Below, one piece after another: positions 4,292-19,175 of a stretch of DNA of 23,305 nt. Numbering within the stretch: position 1 is the stretch's first letter; the number at the start of each line of letters is the position of its first letter. A program made the translations under genes and the position numbers. The DNA is from a virus. The stretch is from UHGV virus genome UHGV-0337120; one strand, given 5' to 3'. Under the pieces are notes generated by a model. That model was given only the letters and a program-made list of their open reading frames with translations. It had not been told where the DNA came from and did not search any database.

Positions 4292-4594
4292 ATGCATCCT
4301 TGCCCATACTGCGGAGCAAGTACCCGCACCAGAACAAGCCGCGACGCCAACGATACAGGAACAATCAGGGAGAAATATTACCAGTGCAACAACATTGAAT
4401 GCAGCGCCACCTTTGTGACGCACGAGTTTGTCGTGAGAACCGTATGCCGTCCGCAACCCACCGAAGAACGGGGAGTCGTCCCCGCAGACGCTTTCAAATC
4501 ATGCCACCGGGGAAGGGATCAACTCAGCCTCCCCCTGGGCGATTGCGCCTCCCAGTCAAAAACTGTACATTACGCGCGGGTGCCTTTCGGCTGA
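4292..4594 (+). CDS. ogr: Ogr/Delta-family zinc-finger late transcription activator
   Basis: CPYC...QCNNIECSATF matches the Ogr C-x2-C...C-x4-C finger (P2 Ogr CPLC...QCQNVNCSATF); directly downstream of D as in P2. ORF is 100 aa, longer than P2 Ogr, so the C-terminal extent is uncertain. Confidence 0.8.
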   Translation: MHPCPYCGASTRTRTSRDANDTGTIREKYYQCNNIECSATFVTHEFVVRTVCRPQPTEERGVVPADAFKSCHRGRDQLSLPLGDCASQSKTVHYARVPFG

Positions 4595-4725
4595 CGGCTG
4601 GAAGGATTACCTGAAGGCCGGATGTGGAAAGGCCCCGAGTCAAACATATTGTTTAACCCGAGGCCCTGACCATCTAACCGTGACAAGTGGAAGGTTAGCG
4701 CCTCTTTGAAAAAGGAGCAAGCGCT

Positions 4726-4866
4726 ATGCCGCAAAAAACGATCATCGTGAGCATTTTATGCTTAACCATGTTGTTGACCGTCTGGATGATACACCGTTCA
4801 CCGTGTGAGTTCAGACTTAACATCATGTGGTCAGAATTTGCGGCGTTCTTGCAGTGTAAACAGTAA
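4726..4866 (+). CDS. hok: Hok/Gef-family type I toxin-like small membrane protein (46 aa)
   Basis: Hand translation MPQKTIIVSILCLTMLLTVWMIHRSPCEFRLNIMWSEFAAFLQCKQ. Shares the spacing CLT-x9-S-x-CE-x-R-x6-E-x-AAF with Hok (R1); GGAG RBS 8 nt upstream; structured 3' region with hairpin at 4875-4896 and terminator at 4961-4991. Too short to appear in the ORF track. Confidence 0.6.
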   Translation: MPQKTIIVSILCLTMLLTVWMIHRSPCEFRLNIMWSEFAAFLQCKQ

Positions 4867-4960
4867 GAAACCGCAGCGGGGGTGAAAGCCCCCGCTATCC
4901 GGTTGCCGAAGGTTCGGTCGAAAGTCGCACCCTCACACGCAAGTCACAAAGAAAAACAAA

Positions 4961-12083: not shown

Positions 12084-12469
12084 AAACAACCTCCATTGTT
12101 AATAAACGCCGCTATCCCTCGGCGCATTCCATTTTTGCGCCGCGATTATACATACTTCAGCACGCAACACAAAAACCGCTTGCCAGCGCTCGTCGTGTCA
12201 GGTTACATTTCCGCTGCACCTCATAAAACGGGTGCCGGGATTTCCACCCCGCTGACAAACGAAGCGCACAGCCGCGCCAGCGGTTTTTTTGTGCGTACTG
12301 TATCGCCACGTCTTTTTCGCGTCAGAATTATGGCGGGGCGTACAGGGCCGACTTCGGTCGGGCCGGTTTCTTCGTTTGCCGGTTGTGGAAACCCTGTACG
12401 TCTCGCCACCCTGAGTTTTCCACCTCTGGTTGGTGAGTTTTCAAAATTCACAAACGAAGAGGCCACACC

Positions 12470-12691
12470 ATGGCAAACCGCAAGCAACAGCGCGCCCGCG
12501 CTGAGCGTCTTCACATCCGCAGCGAAATCAACCGCAGACTCCATCGGGCTGCATCTGTCGCCTTTATCATGCAGTCAAACGTATTACACCGACTTAACGA
12601 CGGTATCGCTGCCGGGTATTACGCGGCAGTCTTCAGCTATCTCGCCGAAGATCTGGCAGAACTACAAAGCCTCATCAACCAGCACCGATAA
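12470..12691 (+). CDS. Hypothetical protein (P2 orf82/83-region equivalent)
   Basis: 73 aa; GAAGAGG RBS; follows a 370-bp ORF-free structured region. Confidence 0.45.
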   Translation: MANRKQQRARAERLHIRSEINRRLHRAASVAFIMQSNVLHRLNDGIAAGYYAAVFSYLAEDLAELQSLINQHR

Positions 12692-12759
12692 ACCACATCC
12701 GGAAGCTATCCCACACCTGCACGCGGGAGGCTTCCGCACATCTGTTACCGGAGGTTCTC

Positions 12760-13176
12760 ATGAAGAGCGTTAAGGGGCTTTCAGATATTCAGGACTTTTT
12801 TAACTGGATGTGGGCGGTGGATCCCCTGCTGGCTTCCCGCCTGAACAACTGGCACGACTATTACCGCCGCGCCTGTAAACAGGCTGCCCGCAGCGTCACC
12901 ACATACGGGGATTTCTCCTTCACCGTGGACGGTCGTTACCGCGTGGACGTGAAAGGTGATGGTGATGGACTGGGTTTATTTCACATCAACGGCACCGACA
13001 GTACCGCCATCAGCTGGTCGTCATCAGAGATGGCGCTGGTTCTGGAAATGACAACCCACAGCGTGGCCGTGAAAGGTATATACACCGCAGAAGGTTTTAT
13101 CGGCGAATACCAGCGCCTTCTCGTGCTGTACCGCGCGGCGTTTCAGGTGGCAACTGCCGGGGAGTACGACGCATGA
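12760..13176 (+). CDS. Hypothetical protein upstream of A
   Basis: 138 aa; GGAGG RBS; stop overlaps A start (ATGA). Confidence 0.5.
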   Translation: MKSVKGLSDIQDFFNWMWAVDPLLASRLNNWHDYYRRACKQAARSVTTYGDFSFTVDGRYRVDVKGDGDGLGLFHINGTDSTAISWSSSEMALVLEMTTHSVAVKGIYTAEGFIGEYQRLLVLYRAAFQVATAGEYDA

Positions 13177-15686
13177 GTGACCGCAATGCACAGCTGGCGT
13201 ACCCGTGGAACGCACCGCTACCGGTTATCGATCCTGAAACGTTCGGCAGAGCACAACCAACCGCATTACGCCAGGCCATTCAGAGCTACATCAACGAGGA
13301 CATTCGCATTGATGCCAGACTGGATGAAGAAACCGTCTCCTTCCTGACAAACACAGACGAAGGCAAGCGAATTAATTCGCACCTTCACCACGACGAAGAG
13401 CGTCGGATCAGACTGGAAAAACTGGCGCGGCACAAACGCGAAAATCCGCCCACACTGGTATCTGAAGCCATGGCAGAGCTGCGCGCCCTGCCGCCGTTTC
13501 TTGCCAGTCCGCTCATCCGGGACCTGGCTCGCCTGAGCCGCAAACAGGAGAGCGCACGCCGGGAAGGGCTTAAGAATAACAGCGCATATGCGGCGGATAA
13601 CTTCGTTCGTCATGGGCTGCGTGCCCGCCTGAAACGTATCGCCCGTGTGAATGAACGCTTTGCCACCCCGGCCTTTAAGGCCACCGCCGCCCGCGAACGG
13701 CTGGATGAACTGCTTATACTGCCGCAGCTGAGCCGTGACGAAATCCAGCGCCTTGCCACCCTGACCGCCACCGCGTTTTCCGCCGCACTGGAGCGCGCAT
13801 GTGATGAGATCATCGAAAAGACCGGCAGGGGTGACGATGACCTGTTCACCTGGTTACTGACCTACCAGTCACTGGCACACATGGCGTTAAAACTGGGTAT
13901 CACGCCACCCTGCTGGCCGTCGCTGGAAATCAGGCCAGACCGCCGCACCGCCCCCAACCCGGAACGGGTGCCGGGTGCGGTCATGCGCCTTTCCTGTGCG
14001 ACATGGTGGAACAGTCAGTTAAGACACCTCCGGGACATCTGGCGTGAAGAGCTGTTACGCGCCGCAGGTCTGGTGTCACGTAAGACATCGGTATATATCA
14101 GCCATGAAGCGTTACTGGACTGGCGCGAAAAACGCCAGCGCACCCGCGATTTTCTGAAGGCCTGGGACATCGAGAACGAAGAGGGAGAACGGTTCAGCCT
14201 TGAGGATATCTACTGGGCAGGTCTCTCTAATCCGCGTAACCGCCGTAACGAGATGATGACCTGCGCCCGGGGAATGGAGCAGGTCGCCGAAGCACGCGGC
14301 GATGTGGCGTTTTTCGTCACCGTCACAGCCCCTTCCCGTTTTCACAGCGTGAACGATGACGGCAGTCTGAACCCGAAATACTGCGGGGCAACGGTACGCG
14401 ATGCCAGTGATTATCTGGTTTACCGCTTTTTCGCCGCCGTCCGCAGGGCCATCGACAAGGCCGGGCTGGGCTGGTACGGCGTGCGCACAGTGGAGCCCCA
14501 CCACGACGGTACACCGCACTGGCACATGCTGGTATTCACCAGCCAGGAAAACGAAGCCCGTATCACTGAAATCATGCGCAACGCCGCCATCAGGGAGGAC
14601 CGCGCAGAGCTGGGTGATGATATCTCCCCGCGTTTTAAATGCGAAAAAATCGACCCGGCAAAAGGCACACCGACAAGCTATATCGCGACCTATATCGGTA
14701 AGAACCTGGACGCCAGCGCCTTCATGGGAAATGACCCGAAAACCGGCAAACCTTACGTCGATAAGGAATCAGGCAAAACCATGGCCGAAACCGTGGAGAA
14801 CGCCATCGGCTGGGCAGGCCTTCACCGCATCCACCAGTTCCAGTTCTTCGGTATCCCGCCCCGCCAGGTATGGCGCGAACTCCGCAGCCTTGCCGGGCAG
14901 ATGGCCCGTAACCCGACTGCCCCACAGCGTCTGGACCATGACGACATTGACGCCATACTGGCCGCCGCCGACGTGGGATGTTTTGCCACCTATATCACCC
15001 GCCAGGGTGGTGTGCTCATTCCCCGCAACACGTACCTGGTCCGCACCGCATACGAAACTGCCGAAGAGGCCAACGACTACGGCGAATTCCCGCAACGCAT
15101 TTACGGCGTCCGCGCCCCGTTACTCGGGGAGCGCTACACCATATGCACCCACCCGGACACCTGGAAACTGGTCAGACGTAAGCCGGAAAACGAAGACCGC
15201 ACGGACGAGGGTTTTGACGTTGAGTGCGGCTTTGCCGCACCTTGGACTCGTGGCAATAACTGTCCCCATGATGAAAAAACAGACACCGGAGAGGGTAAAA
15301 CCCCACCACCGGAAGCCAGGAAAGAACAAAAACTGGTCGTCCCGGGAGGTGATTTGGGTGAGTGGTTAAGGTCACTGACCCCCACAAAGCGAAAACAACT
15401 CACCAGGCAGCTGAAAGATGCGACATCTGACACAAAAACCGTGAAAACCGGCAGCCCCACCACGCCCGATGACGTCATACATGTGCGTACAGCATTGCCG
15501 CTGACTGACGTCACCACCACCGTAATCAAGTCGGCACTGAGCGCGACGGGCGAGGAGCTACACAGTGGCGCAGCACTTTCCGTACACAGAGGTGCACGCG
15601 TTCGCCTGCCTGACGGGCGGATTGTGCACTGGGATGAGAAATCACGAAGCCTGGTGGCAGCAGATCAACCGGAGGTGAACCCATGA
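13173..15686 (+). CDS. A: Rolling-circle replication initiator, gpA-like
   Basis: 837 aa; VEPHHDGTPHWHMLVF matches P2 A VEPHHDGTPHWHMMLF (HUH-type metal motif); downstream GYIAKYISKN-like SYIATYIGKN also conserved. Confidence 0.92.
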   Translation: MSDRNAQLAYPWNAPLPVIDPETFGRAQPTALRQAIQSYINEDIRIDARLDEETVSFLTNTDEGKRINSHLHHDEERRIRLEKLARHKRENPPTLVSEAMAELRALPPFLASPLIRDLARLSRKQESARREGLKNNSAYAADNFVRHGLRARLKRIARVNERFATPAFKATAARERLDELLILPQLSRDEIQRLATLTATAFSAALERACDEIIEKTGRGDDDLFTWLLTYQSLAHMALKLGITPPCWPSLEIRPDRRTAPNPERVPGAVMRLSCATWWNSQLRHLRDIWREELLRAAGLVSRKTSVYISHEALLDWREKRQRTRDFLKAWDIENEEGERFSLEDIYWAGLSNPRNRRNEMMTCARGMEQVAEARGDVAFFVTVTAPSRFHSVNDDGSLNPKYCGATVRDASDYLVYRFFAAVRRAIDKAGLGWYGVRTVEPHHDGTPHWHMLVFTSQENEARITEIMRNAAIREDRAELGDDISPRFKCEKIDPAKGTPTSYIATYIGKNLDASAFMGNDPKTGKPYVDKESGKTMAETVENAIGWAGLHRIHQFQFFGIPPRQVWRELRSLAGQMARNPTAPQRLDHDDIDAILAAADVGCFATYITRQGGVLIPRNTYLVRTAYETAEEANDYGEFPQRIYGVRAPLLGERYTICTHPDTWKLVRRKPENEDRTDEGFDVECGFAAPWTRGNNCPHDEKTDTGEGKTPPPEARKEQKLVVPGGDLGEWLRSLTPTKRKQLTRQLKDATSDTKTVKTGSPTTPDDVIHVRTALPLTDVTTTVIKSALSATGEELHSGAALSVHRGARVRLPDGRIVHWDEKSRSLVAADQPEVNP

Positions 15687-16087
15687 CACGATTCCATTGT
15701 GTACTCCAGCGCCATGATTTCAGCGCCATCATGAGTGGACGCATTCCGGCACTGACGCTGAGCGGCGTCAGTGTTCGACCACAGCCAGGCGACGAACTGG
15801 AGATCACGATCGCAAACCCCGATCGCAGCACAGATACCGTCATGACCGACATCCTGACTGCAAGAATCAACACCGACAGAAGCGCATTCATCGTTGCCGT
15901 GCGCCCTCGTCGCGCCATATCAGAGCCTGAACCACTGACTCCCGTAGGAAAAATCATGCAGGCATACCACGAAAAACAGACCAGAAAACTCAACGAAGAA
16001 CTGGCAAGAACGCTGGCCGTCGTTAACCGAAAAGCGGCAATTGTCCGCTATGTGCATTCGGCCGCCAGCAGGCAATCACACAGGTAA
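15683..16087 (+). CDS. Hypothetical protein, first gene after A
   Basis: 134 aa; ATGA-coupled to A; GGAGGTG RBS. Confidence 0.5.
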   Translation: MTRFHCVLQRHDFSAIMSGRIPALTLSGVSVRPQPGDELEITIANPDRSTDTVMTDILTARINTDRSAFIVAVRPRRAISEPEPLTPVGKIMQAYHEKQTRKLNEELARTLAVVNRKAAIVRYVHSAASRQSHR

Positions 16088-16135
16088 CAAAAGACCATGA
16101 ACATGACCAGAAACAGCAAACCGAAGGAGCACACC

Positions 16136-16306
16136 ATGAACGACATCAGGAGGATCAGCGACAAAGAGCTTACGAAAATGATTGAGTCGGCGCAGCAGCT
16201 GCTTTCACGACGAAATCCGGTTGTGGAAGAAACATGGTGGGAAAATTTACTGGCAGCACTGACCGAACTCCGCGAACGCCGGAACAACGAAGGAGCCGCC
16301 AAATGA
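16136..16306 (+). CDS. Hypothetical small helical protein
   Basis: 56 aa from ATG 16136 (AAGGAG RBS); track ORF starts earlier at 16097. Confidence 0.4.
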   Translation: MNDIRRISDKELTKMIESAQQLLSRRNPVVEETWWENLLAALTELRERRNNEGAAK

Positions 16307-16641
16307 AGACACCCAGAATGACCGGAAAGGTAATCATTTTACGCTACCTGGAAACGCACGCACGCTTCAGCGCACCAGAGCTGGTTGAAAAACTGGGCGT
16401 GAAAAGGACCATCATTAATCAGGCCGCCGGAAAGATGGTACGCGAAGGGCTGCTGGTTGTGGACGGGTACACGGACAAGATAACGCATTACCGGAAGCCA
16501 ACGGAAAAGGAACGACTGGAGCTGGAGCGGCGGGCTGAACAGCAACAAAAGCCGTCCGTAATCCAGGACTGCAAGCGAAGCGAAATCATGAAGCGAATTC
16601 TGTTTATCTACGGCGCTGGCGAAGAGCTGCCAGTCATCTAA
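16303..16641 (+). CDS. Putative winged-helix DNA-binding protein
   Basis: 112 aa from ATG 16303 (ATGA overlap with previous stop); segment LRYLETHARFSAPELVEKLGVKRTIINQAAGKMVREGLLVVDG looks like a MarR-like wHTH (fold-level guess). Confidence 0.45.
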   Translation: MKTPRMTGKVIILRYLETHARFSAPELVEKLGVKRTIINQAAGKMVREGLLVVDGYTDKITHYRKPTEKERLELERRAEQQQKPSVIQDCKRSEIMKRILFIYGAGEELPVI

Positions 16642-16673
16642 CCCCAACAATAAAACCAACACGGGAGACAAAT

Positions 16674-16991
16674 ATGCCAACACAGGTTGCAACAGAGGGA
16701 CGACTGGCAGCAGACCCGAACACAAGGAGAACAACCAAAGGAACCAACGTCACAACGGCACAACTGGCGGTATCACTACCCTGCCATGGCGCAGAACAGC
16801 CAACCACAATGTGGCTTTACCTTATTTCATTCGGGAAGCAGCACGAAGAACTGGCAAAACACAGAAAAGGCGATCTGATTCTGGTGCACGGAAACTTGCA
16901 GGTAAACAGGTATCAGGACAAGTACGGGCAACAGAAAGAGGGCTGGCAGTTGCTGGCGCAAAGCATTATCAGCTCAAGAACCGGGCGATGA
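16674..16991 (+). CDS. Truncated SSB-like OB-fold protein lacking the acidic C-terminal tail
   Basis: 105 aa; G.L..DP..R.T..G..V....LAVS...W....FGK..E......KG....V.G.L....Y.D..GQ aligns with the E. coli SSB OB-fold from memory; no Gly-rich linker or DDDIPF tail. Confidence 0.5.
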   Translation: MPTQVATEGRLAADPNTRRTTKGTNVTTAQLAVSLPCHGAEQPTTMWLYLISFGKQHEELAKHRKGDLILVHGNLQVNRYQDKYGQQKEGWQLLAQSIISSRTGR

Positions 16992-17001
16992 CTTCACGCA
17001 T

Positions 17002-17041
17002 GTTACCCTCAGCAGCGAGGGTAACACAGGATTTCTTTTTT
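17002..17041 (+). terminator. Terminator hairpin between convergent genes
   Basis: Perfect 9-bp stem GTTACCCTC-agcagc-GAGGGTAAC, T-run at 17034-17039. Confidence 0.55.
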
Positions 17042-17547
17042 CAGTCAAACCGAAATCGGCCGCTTGTCGCGTATGCATAGGTGACCACCGCACCCAGCGC
17101 ATTCACACGCTTCTTCACATAAATCACATTACCATCCTGATAGTCACCGTATGGGTAGCAAATAAAGATTGTTTTTTGCAAATCAGGATCATCAACAAAT
17201 GCCCCTGAACAACTTTTTGAGCTACCGCGACTGTACTCATAGGGAGCGGAATAGAATGAATCTTCACCCGGAAGAAAATATATCAGCGTAACCAGGAGGG
17301 TAAACAGAATCATCCAGGTAAGAAGGCACATACCCGAAAAAAACTTAAGATACGATGTAACCCCGGTAAATTTAGACCGATCAACCAGGTTCTTTTTCAA
17401 CAGGCACAGTGAGACAAAAACCGAAAGCACCACAGACACTGAAACAAGGCAGTTTGTCGTGAACGAATAAAGGTAGGTAATTCTGTAAACATCGTTTCGC
17501 CACCAAATAAAAAGAAAAATCCCCCCCCAAAACAGAAAGCGTGACAA
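17041..17547 (-). CDS. Multi-TM membrane protein with C-terminal soluble domain (cargo candidate in A-cos region)
   Basis: 168-aa ORF, AT-rich; three hydrophobic segments then ~75-aa Y/G/D-rich tail; only TTG/GTG starts available; G8 tract (plus C8 17521-17528) within first 10 codons. Confidence 0.45.
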   Translation of the reverse strand: MSRFLFWGGIFLFIWWRNDVYRITYLYSFTTNCLVSVSVVLSVFVSLCLLKKNLVDRSKFTGVTSYLKFFSGMCLLTWMILFTLLVTLIYFLPGEDSFYSAPYEYSRGSSKSCSGAFVDDPDLQKTIFICYPYGDYQDGNVIYVKKRVNALGAVVTYAYATSGRFRFD

Positions 17548-17660
17548 AAGTTAAATAAGGATATGAGTAATTTTTCACAGTTCTCACCCGGCAATACACC
17601 ACTGATTCAGACAGATGATTATCATCACCACCCACCCCCAAAAATCGCAAGATAAAAAAT

Positions 17661-17690
17661 GCACAAAAGCGCACGAAATTGCACAATTTT
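17661..17690. repeat. Three helically phased 10-bp GCAC repeats upstream of the membrane-protein gene
   Basis: gcacaaaagc / gcacgaaatt / gcacaatttt start at 17661, 17671, 17681, exactly 10 bp apart. Confidence 0.35.
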
Positions 17691-17782
17691 TCTTATGTGT
17701 TTCATCCCCATTCAGCCCAGTAACGGCGCTGGCTGAGGCCGGTTTGCACGGTGCACGAAAAACGAGGCAATTGCAGCGCGCA

Positions 17783-17801
17783 GGCGACGAGGGAAGGGCG
17801 C
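17783..17801. other. Candidate cos (cohesive-end) site
   Basis: GGCGACGAGGGAAGGGCGC, G-rich 19-mer about 330 bp beyond the 3' end of Q; loosely resembles the P2/186 cos 19-mer recalled from memory (GGCGAGGCGGGGAAAGCAC). Uncertain. Confidence 0.25.
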
Positions 17802-18081
17802 CCGAATTGAGGGGTGGAAGGCAGGTTGCTTTATTTGGGGTCGTATTGCGCGTGATACGCCAGCAGTGAAGCCTGTTTTAAAAAACCACACCGAAACAGA
17901 GTCAGAAAAACAGGCCGCCAGAATGCGTCTGGTTGAGTTTTACGGGGTCGGGATTAAATGCGGAAACATCACACCGCAGGCATGACGCGAAAAAGAGAAA
18001 AACCACAGCAAAACATAATGTTAAATGTTATTGATGAGTTGAGAAGCGAAAGGTGTATTGCGTTGACAGAGCTGGAGAGTC

Positions 18082-18106
18082 GGGGCATAAATTTTTTATG
18101 CCCCGG
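18082..18106. other. Perfect 11-bp inverted repeat downstream of Q
   Basis: CGGGGCATAAA-ttt-TTTATGCCCCG, 26 bp beyond the Q stop; no clear U-tract on either strand. Confidence 0.4.
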
Positions 18107-18131
18107 CGAAGCAGCCGACAAGCGAAGCGCG

Positions 18132-19175
18132 TCAGCTGGCGCCATCCTGAAGCAGCGAATAGGGATTAAAGCGCATCACTTCAACCCCAAGCCATTCATT
18201 GACATGCTTCATCGCTTCCATGACCGGTTGCAACTCGTTGATGAAAAATACCCTCGCCGCCTTCTCAACGTCACCGAACGCCGCGTTCCCGTCAGGCATT
18301 GCCCCCATCAGCTGAGGCGGTACACGGTGAGCCGCAAGGATATCGTCGCGGGCACTCCCCTTGATGTTAAGGAATTCGTCCTTCGCGGTGATTTGCTGGA
18401 ACGGCAGTATTTGCACACCATCCTTGCCGCCACCTGGCGCGTGCAGAAGGATATTGCGGAACGCCCCCTTGCCACGGGATTCCGTGAGTGTTTTCTTGAT
18501 GGCTTCCACGCTTTCAGCGTTTGCCTGGGCGGCACCAACATAGACAATGCACCCGGCATGTGAACCGTTGTCATAGTAGAGCTTGCGGAACGTATCCGCT
18601 GAGTTCGACAGACTCACCGACAGCAACCCACCGATATACTCCGGCATCCCGTAGATTTCCTGGTTGATATCGGGGTTCAGAACGTGGCACACAGCCCCCT
18701 TACGGAAAGCAAATTCAGAACCATCATCATTGAGGTACCAGTACGTATCGAGATCACTGCCCCGCCGCGTGTATTTCGCCAGCGCAGGACGAAGCGCAAT
18801 GGGTTCACCGAACTTGTTGCGGCGGACTTCAAGATAGGCATTACCGAACACGAACCAGTCCAGCGCAAACGCGGAAAACGCCTGGCGGGACAGTAGCGGA
18901 TGAGGAACAAAGCAGCCGTTCAGGGCATTACGCTTAAAATACAGGGCCGACTGGTGCCATGATGCACGACGCGAGGCGCGAGCAATGGCATTCCAGTCCA
19001 TGGGGGTGTCATAGTAGCGGCCATTATCGGCGCACGACATGTTATCAAGCAGATCAAGACGGCTTGCTTCATAAGGACCGTCAAACGTGAAAGCACTGAG
19101 TGACGGCGCTGATTTCAGTGCATCAGCCAGTGAGCCCGTGCCGCGCTTTCCGGTGTATTTTTTACGTTTACTCAT
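18132..19175 (-). CDS. Q: Portal protein, gpQ-like
   Basis: 347 aa; blocks EPDINQEIYGMPEY, YDNGSHAG, LAAHRVPPQLMG, GDVEKAARVF match P2 Q from memory. Confidence 0.92.
   Translation of the reverse strand: MSKRKKYTGKRGTGSLADALKSAPSLSAFTFDGPYEASRLDLLDNMSCADNGRYYDTPMDWNAIARASRRASWHQSALYFKRNALNGCFVPHPLLSRQAFSAFALDWFVFGNAYLEVRRNKFGEPIALRPALAKYTRRGSDLDTYWYLNDDGSEFAFRKGAVCHVLNPDINQEIYGMPEYIGGLLSVSLSNSADTFRKLYYDNGSHAGCIVYVGAAQANAESVEAIKKTLTESRGKGAFRNILLHAPGGGKDGVQILPFQQITAKDEFLNIKGSARDDILAAHRVPPQLMGAMPDGNAAFGDVEKAARVFFINELQPVMEAMKHVNEWLGVEVMRFNPYSLLQDGAS

Follow-up and report, generated by a model that had tools for sequence, protein, structure and literature searches.

Four genes behind the replication gene A of a P2-like Escherichia coli prophage, ending in an SSB-family protein without an acidic tail

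In this work we describe four small genes, g1 to g4, that follow the replication gene A in the virus genome UHGV-0337120, a stretch of 23,305 nucleotides that was analysed as a whole and is called the window below. The window is a segment of an Escherichia coli chromosome with a P2-like prophage, and is 99.7% identical to strain JNEC-KY204 over the 1.5 kb queried. The four genes lie on the plus strand together with A (13173-15686, 837 amino acids; Pfam Phage_GPA, E value 5.7e-106), which is the upstream anchor of the operon and is named a replication endonuclease by the Prokaryotic Genome Annotation Pipeline (PGAP). The start codon of g1 (15683-16087, 134 amino acids; phrog_14984, E 3.4e-81) overlaps the stop codon of A as ATGA. 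It is followed after 9 nucleotides by g2 (16097-16306, 69 amino acids; phrog_14672, E 1.1e-34), whose stop codon forms a second ATGA overlap with g3 (16303-16641, 112 amino acids), the gene of a winged-helix protein homologous to lambda Ren. The last gene, g4 (16674-16991), begins 32 nucleotides further on behind a GGGAGA ribosome-binding site. It encodes a protein of 105 amino acids from the SSB family (single-stranded DNA-binding proteins), consisting only of the oligonucleotide/oligosaccharide-binding (OB) domain. The operon is closed by an intrinsic terminator on the same strand (17001-17042), a 10-bp GC-rich hairpin (GTTACCCTC...GAGGGTAAC) followed by a T-run, with an RNA folding energy of -19.9 kcal/mol and a z-score of -3.5 against shuffled sequences. 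This is the single strong terminator, and it lies 3' of g4. An Rfam scan of 15683-17100 found no RNA family.

An earlier note on this DNA, made from the letters alone, had proposed a four-gene unit after A at 15683-16991, and these positions run exactly from the start codon of g1 to the stop codon of g4. The RefSeq annotation by PGAP of the 99.7% identical E. coli prophage has the same four coding sequences, naming g3 a MarR family transcriptional regulator and g4 a single-stranded DNA-binding protein. For g2, which is the same open reading frame (ORF) in PGAP, an alternative start at 16136 would give 56 amino acids. We favour the upstream start at 16097 because two relatives (L004 and L005) have no start codon at the position corresponding to 16136. 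Pairwise ratios of nonsynonymous to synonymous substitution rates (dN/dS) between diverged copies are 0.14-0.19 for g1, 0.20-0.49 for g2, 0.12-0.23 for g3 and 0.15-0.34 for g4, next to 0.16-0.37 for A. All four genes are under purifying selection and are therefore real genes and not chance ORFs. In A itself, the Phage_GPA domain covers residues 189-514 of 837. The 3' end of A (15286-15686, roughly the last 130 codons) has no DNA-level alignment with a sister lineage of the gene, the match ending at query position 2113 of 2514, which indicates that, beside the g1-g4 cassette, the replication protein has a C-terminal extension that varies.

The assignment of g4 to the SSB family is based on several independent comparisons. 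The protein matches Pfam PF00436 with an E value of 6.6e-14 (52.3 bits, the gathering score being 26; residues 4-97 of 105) and PHROG 44 with an E value of 8.5e-24, while the score for NCBIfam TIGR00621, 48.8 bits, falls slightly under the cutoff of 53.95. A phmmer search with g4 matched 27 solved SSB chains. As a single-sequence AlphaFold model was unusable (predicted local distance difference test, pLDDT, of 49.5), we used an AlphaFold2 model built on an alignment of 77 sequences, which has a pLDDT of 95.5 and a predicted template modelling (TM) score of 0.84, and which consists of a five-strand barrel and a helix. When this model was compared with the PDB using Foldseek, the top 50 matches were all bacterial SSB OB domains, with E values down to 5e-9 and TM scores of about 0.7-0.8. 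The best viral matches in BFVD were phage SSBs. The earlier note had suspected an SSB-like OB fold in the last gene, and both the structure prediction and the comparison with SSBs bear this out. Three of the four aromatic residues with which E. coli SSB stacks on single-stranded DNA (ssDNA) are kept in g4, W54 as W47, F60 as F53 and W88 as the likewise aromatic Y80. W47 and F53 are invariant in the clade of g4, and the fourth residue, W40 in E. coli, falls in a loop that is shortened throughout the clade.

ExoI, RecQ, RecO, PriA, chi and other partners dock on SSBs at the acidic tip of the C-terminus. The C-terminus of g4 (...LLAQSIISSRTGR, SIISSRTGR) lies right at the end of the OB domain, with neither linker nor acidic tip, whereas its aligned relatives run on past the OB domain through SARTVRP and a linker to FDDxIPF. 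The absence of an acidic tail, the second feature that had been noticed in this protein, is thus real: g4 stops before the tail of the SSBs aligned with it. When 1.84 billion representatives were searched exhaustively without a profile, g4 fell into an isolated cluster at 50% identity. Its nearest neighbours, at 40-48% identity, are mainly 125-170 amino acids long and mostly carry tips of the FDDxIPF type (DDxIPF type), so that the loss of the tail in g4 is derived. Among 108 representative relatives with a full OB domain, 50 pass a strict test for the tip, about 15 more have a tip by eye and 18 (17%) are OB-only. The stop position and the length of 105 amino acids are unchanged across g4 variants that are 75-98% identical. 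Judged by its sequence and its structural model, g4 is a genuine SSB-family protein without the partner-recruiting tail. It is already annotated as an SSB in RefSeq, and naturally tail-less SSBs are already known.

One such protein is SsbB (YwpH) of Bacillus subtilis, a competence SSB of 113 amino acids that protects ssDNA without recruiting RecO (PMC3384303). Like g4 it has a single SSB-type OB domain, a similar size (113 against 105 amino acids) and no acidic tail, and its structure (PDB 3vdy) is among the sequence matches of g4 with an E value of 7e-4. Its expression is confined to a special state of DNA processing. SsbB is encoded on the chromosome of Firmicutes as a competence gene, whereas g4 belongs to the replication operon of a proteobacterial phage and has tailed SSBs of mobile elements as its nearest relatives. 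Because the similarity is at family level only, the tail was lost independently in the two proteins. PriB, a protein of about 104 amino acids with an SSB-derived OB fold and no acidic tail, is like g4 in size, fold and lack of a tail, but the clade of g4 is rooted in tailed SSBs. We considered PriB as an identity for g4 and rejected it, as no PriB is found among the 29 phmmer matches or the top 50 Foldseek matches, which are SSBs throughout.

The genomic surroundings of the clade are informative as well. Of the closest relatives of g4 that we looked up, five were on a contig with several genes, and in four of the five the SSB gene comes directly downstream of a large same-strand gene. In three of the four cases, from P4-like or integrative elements, the large gene encodes a primase-helicase (with Zn_Ribbon_Prim, Toprim_3 and DUF927; with DUF927; and with Toprim_3 and DUF927, respectively), and in the fourth a tail-less SSB of 112 amino acids follows an unannotated gene of 747 amino acids. 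On this evidence, the association conserved in the clade is that of a replication initiator followed by a small SSB. The SSBs closest to g4 outside its own cluster, P0010, P0011 and P0013 (42-47% identity, E about 1e-19 to 1e-23), have in common with g4 a short L23 loop, the motifs SLPC and SARTxR, and a position just 3' of the replication initiator of their element. Their initiator is a Toprim/DUF927 primase-helicase, that of g4 a nicking endonuclease of the GPA family. Most of the SSBs linked to a primase-helicase have a linker of 20-60 amino acids and an FDDxIPF-type tip; P0010 and P0013 are tipped, P0011 is not, and g4 has neither linker nor tip. We observed that the genes of these three SSBs adjoin Toprim/DUF927 genes at L008 1033-4897, L017 2-3846 and L020 2754-5435, and that a PerC-family gene is next in two of the three. 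The comparison suggests that the SSB gene may move between satellites and their P2-like helpers.

The gene preceding g4 had been put forward as a candidate winged helix-turn-helix (wHTH) protein. This is borne out: g3 matches Pfam MarR_2 just under the cutoff (24.6 bits against 27), over the helix-turn-helix only (residues 33-76 of the long ORF). At 112 amino acids it is shorter than the dimeric wHTH proteins of the MarR family (about 140-150 amino acids), and its best PDB match, LrpA, is weak (E 0.017). The protein is also a homologue of lambda Ren: g3 matches phrog_142, the Ren-like exclusion protein family, with an E value of 2.8e-29, and tblastn aligns its residues 6-104 to lambda ren (40280-40558) at 41% identity (E 4e-13), with matches in 170 lambdoid records. 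Ren lets lambda escape Rex exclusion, which is a counter-defence function and not a defence function. The homology extends over nearly the whole protein, g3 having a slightly longer C-terminus. In the pR operon of lambda, ren comes after O and P, and its product has been described as a likely participant in DNA replication that contacts Rex proteins in two-hybrid assays (bioRxiv 10.1101/2021.04.19.439022). Both genes thus come after replication genes: lambda ren overlaps the end of P, and g3 lies 617 nucleotides 3' of A on the same strand. The phages differ, that of Ren being lambdoid and that of g3 P2-like, with A-dependent rolling-circle replication.

Much less can be said about g1 and g2. 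No match to g1 was found in Pfam, NCBIfam or PADLOC, and its homologues occur in E. coli only, every one of them labelled hypothetical. Of the four cassette genes it has the tightest link to A, and in L012, a locus of a sister A lineage with 71% protein identity in A, it is kept at 57% identity where g2 to g4 are replaced. For g2, Pfam, PHROG, PADLOC and NCBIfam gave no functional lead, and PADLOC no match at all.

Six IMG/VR loci have a relative of g4; all of them show the order g2-g3-g4, with A and g1 in place wherever the upstream sequence reaches them. About 27 of 5,426 complete E. coli genomes have the cassette in full. A megablast search with the cassette against 50,697 phage records found no match, and tblastn against phage sequences found nothing for g1 and for g4 only one weak match in a Faecalibacterium phage, so prophages and metagenomic viral contigs are the only known sources of the cassette. 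A scan of 185,579 species-representative genomes with g4 found no relative, which indicates that the g4 family is rare and strain-specific. The relatives show a nested pattern of loss, in which g1 is always present and g4 is present least often. In L014, A-g1-g2-g3 is followed by a TumE toxin-antitoxin pair without g4; in L015 ogr and the portal gene come straight after the same four genes; in L016, A-g1-g2 is followed by two other small genes; and in L012 only g1 is kept, before unrelated small early genes. The nested loss shows that g4 does not belong to the replication core but is an optional accessory at the distal end. If these genes were conserved core genes, all relatives would be expected to have them, yet g4 is missing from relatives that are otherwise syntenic.

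According to the earlier note, the four genes occupy the slot where P2 carries tin and old. The interval is indeed the same, as A lies on one side of g1-g4 and the portal gene (Q) on the other, and the gpA-gpQ interval of P2-like phages is a hotspot of diversity and defence which in P2 holds tin and old (PMC9122126; PMC9519451). The position within the interval is not that of tin and old. In the P2 record, orf91 lies on the strand of A (plus) and overlaps its stop codon, whereas tin and old are on the minus strand, convergent, with a promoter of their own and transcript starts mapped near cos. Like orf91, g1 overlaps the stop codon of A, and here too the interval runs from A to Q beside cos; g1-g4 are co-directional with A and ATGA-coupled, in contrast to the convergent tin and old. 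We rejected the idea that g1 is a homologue of P2 Orf91, as the two sequences are without similarity. A crude consensus search, which could miss a weak or non-sigma-70 internal promoter, found no plus-strand sigma-70 promoter-like site in 12400-18200. Matches to the LexA box are at chance level, with none upstream of the cassette, which argues against an SOS-controlled operon after A in the style of phage 186. Taken together, the shared strand, the ATGA coupling, the terminator and the absence of any LexA box or promoter-like site predict that the genes are expressed early in the lytic cycle under repressor control, and not in the lysogen.

The reading that we favour, and that seems to us about equally likely to be right or wrong, is that g1-g4 are optional lytic-cycle helpers of the phage's own DNA metabolism, with g4 shielding phage ssDNA. 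The four genes would be the accreted distal end of the early lytic (replication) operon, transcribed with A after derepression and partly coupled to A in translation. As A nicks the origin and rolling-circle replication proceeds, g4 would coat the displaced strand. Having no linker and no tip, it might, by analogy with SsbB, protect phage ssDNA without recruiting ExoI, RecQ, RecO, PriA, chi and others. The Ren homologue g3 may work at the replication complex or close to it, and might save the phage from Rex-type abortive infection. This reading is supported by the operon anatomy, the SSB fold, the clade context, the Ren homology, the SsbB precedent and the purifying selection.

There are several observations that weigh against it. 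Firstly, g4 is absent from prophages that keep A, g1, g2 and sometimes g3. Secondly, there are disrupted copies: in L006 (3935-5116) g4 is split by an IS3-family element (orfA of 100 and orfB of 272 amino acids), and in L007 (568-822) it has an in-frame deletion of 20 amino acids between GRLA/ARLA repeats that removes OB strands. The disruption, the deletion and the absence imply that g4 is not needed for replication as such and is dispensable in the prophage state. Thirdly, His55 at the tetramer interface of E. coli SSB is Leu48 in g4, a protein whose oligomeric state we infer. Fourthly, from what is known of E. coli SSB, a tail-less SSB cannot contact the chi subunit of DNA polymerase III or primase, and without these contacts g4 could hinder replication when it coats the lagging-strand template. 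Finally, the locus lies inside a published defence hotspot, and our scan could have missed a weak or non-sigma-70 internal promoter.

The same lytic-operon anatomy is in line with a second reading, which we regard as unlikely: that the cassette is a module for counter-defence or host takeover, in which g4, by itself or together with the Ren homologue, mainly blunts the immunity of the host or of a resident prophage during lytic growth. It could do so by hiding ssDNA from tail-recruited nucleases, by blocking RecFOR and RecA loading and the SOS response, or by stopping abortive infection that senses ssDNA or SSB. The patchy accessory distribution is typical of counter-defence genes, and the neighbour g3 is homologous to Ren, to our knowledge the only lambda gene known for escape from Rex exclusion. 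However, we found no anti-defence protein of characterised function that is homologous, and we can name no target. Phage SSBs are targets of known sensors such as Retron-Eco8, but deletion of the tail of T7 SSB left the activation of Retron-Eco8 unaffected (PMC13402713), so tail loss is not an obvious route of evasion. A bolder form of the idea, which we think quite unlikely, is that a 'mute' SSB acts as a weapon or shield. It would outcompete host SSB and silence the SSB interactome (ExoI, RecQ, RecO/RecA loading, PriA restart) on phage, host or rival DNA, and may pair with the Ren homologue against abortive-infection or ssDNA-sensing immunity. A literature search for a characterised tail-less phage SSB in defence or counter-defence returned nothing specific.

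The earlier note had instead pointed to interference with the replication of self or of a competing phage. Spelled out, this reading makes the cassette a superinfection-exclusion system in the tin/old hotspot, in which the prophage expresses g4 as a dominant-negative SSB that binds the ssDNA of an invader or of the host, calls in no partners and poisons replication. P2 Tin acts through gp32, the SSB of T4. The P2 record annotates Tin as acting on T-even phages. The genes do lie in the published gpA-gpQ hotspot, and the exact proteins of the cassette (WP_032330903, WP_000856784, WP_133301447 and WP_016232589) are in Table S5A of Rousset et al. 2022, with an entry 'hypothetical + SSB + ...' in the arrangement table (PMC9122126). 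Yet we find this role very doubtful. The cassette is not among the systems that Rousset et al. curated or tested (PMC9122126), nor among those tested in PMC9519451. Its orientation and coupling match orf91 and not tin and old, the consensus scan detected no independent promoter, and the anatomy predicts lytic expression. PADLOC gave no meaningful match, with nothing for g1 and g2 and marginal wHTH or BrxA noise for g3 (best E 8.7e-4) and g4 (0.018), and the homology of g3 is to Ren, a counter-defence protein. A tail-less SSB made constitutively in a lysogen would be expected to harm host replication, and the truly variable, convergent cargo slot sits downstream of g4. No evidence in this analysis points to interference with a competing phage. 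Least probable of all is that g4 is a decaying remnant, an SSB gene truncated at its 3' end by the insertion of cargo and now functionless: the ancestral state of the clade is tailed, copies are disrupted in two of seven loci and the gene is absent from many relatives, but its dN/dS is 0.15-0.34 at dS up to 0.35, variants as distant as 75% identity share its stop position and its length of 105 amino acids, the gene has an intact ribosome-binding site and a dedicated terminator behind it, and the OB-only state of about 17% of the representative clade clusters suggests a recurrent viable form.

The cargo slot deserves a closer description. In the window it holds a gene on the minus strand (17041-17748), outside the operon and convergent with it, which belongs to phrog_1416, has 235 amino acids in relatives and is a hypothetical protein of 235 amino acids in PGAP. 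Its GC content is low, 0.44 against about 0.55 in the flanks. The gene is frameshifted in the window, where a run of eight G (17520-17527) stands in place of the seven in L001-L003 and leaves an ORF of 168 amino acids with a TTG start. Phase variation, pseudogenisation and a sequencing error are all possible causes. The content of the slot differs in L004, L005, L007 and L014-L016, and the slot varies between relatives while A-g1-g2-g3-g4 stays put. Judged by its layout, this gene and not g1-g4 is the topological and positional equivalent of P2 tin and old. In two relatives the region carries a plus-strand TumE-family toxin-antitoxin pair, TumE with an HVO_A0114-like DNA-binding protein (L014 4658-5406, L005 6573-7321). 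The pair lies 3' of g4 in L005 and 3' of g3 in L014, which has no SSB gene, and a phrog_5091 gene of 167 amino acids is next, before the portal gene.

Elsewhere in the prophage, Rfam finds isrK (12216-12290, plus strand, 64 bits) and the C4 antisense RNA (12326-12413, plus strand, 82 bits) side by side, and just 3' of them lies an ORF of 73 amino acids (12470-12691) named derepression protein in RefSeq. This group looks like an antisense-controlled antirepressor module of the P1/P7 type in the early region of a P2-like phage. The integrase end of the prophage adjoins the chromosomal toxin-antitoxin locus chpSB and ppa, at about 4340-4935 of the window (from L001 5741-6336).

If g1-g4 are optional lytic helpers, they would be a tidy and unsurprising case of a replication operon that grows by optional genes at its 3' end, and of an SSB that sheds its protein-recruiting tail when it serves one replicon only. 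If g4 is instead a 'mute' SSB, the simple loss of a domain would have made it a phage protein of a new class, serving counter-defence or interference, and the silencing of the host SSB interactome or of a defence sensor would be a simple, portable tool and a new counter-defence principle. The most useful by-product of the analysis is a distinction within the gpA-gpQ hotspot, which is made of two compartments: a co-directional extension of the early operon with lytic accessories, and a convergent, independently expressed cargo slot like that of tin and old. Lumping the two together, as published arrangement tables do, puts defence genes in one list with genes that are likely to serve counter-defence or replication, and surveys of this hotspot should treat such lists with caution.

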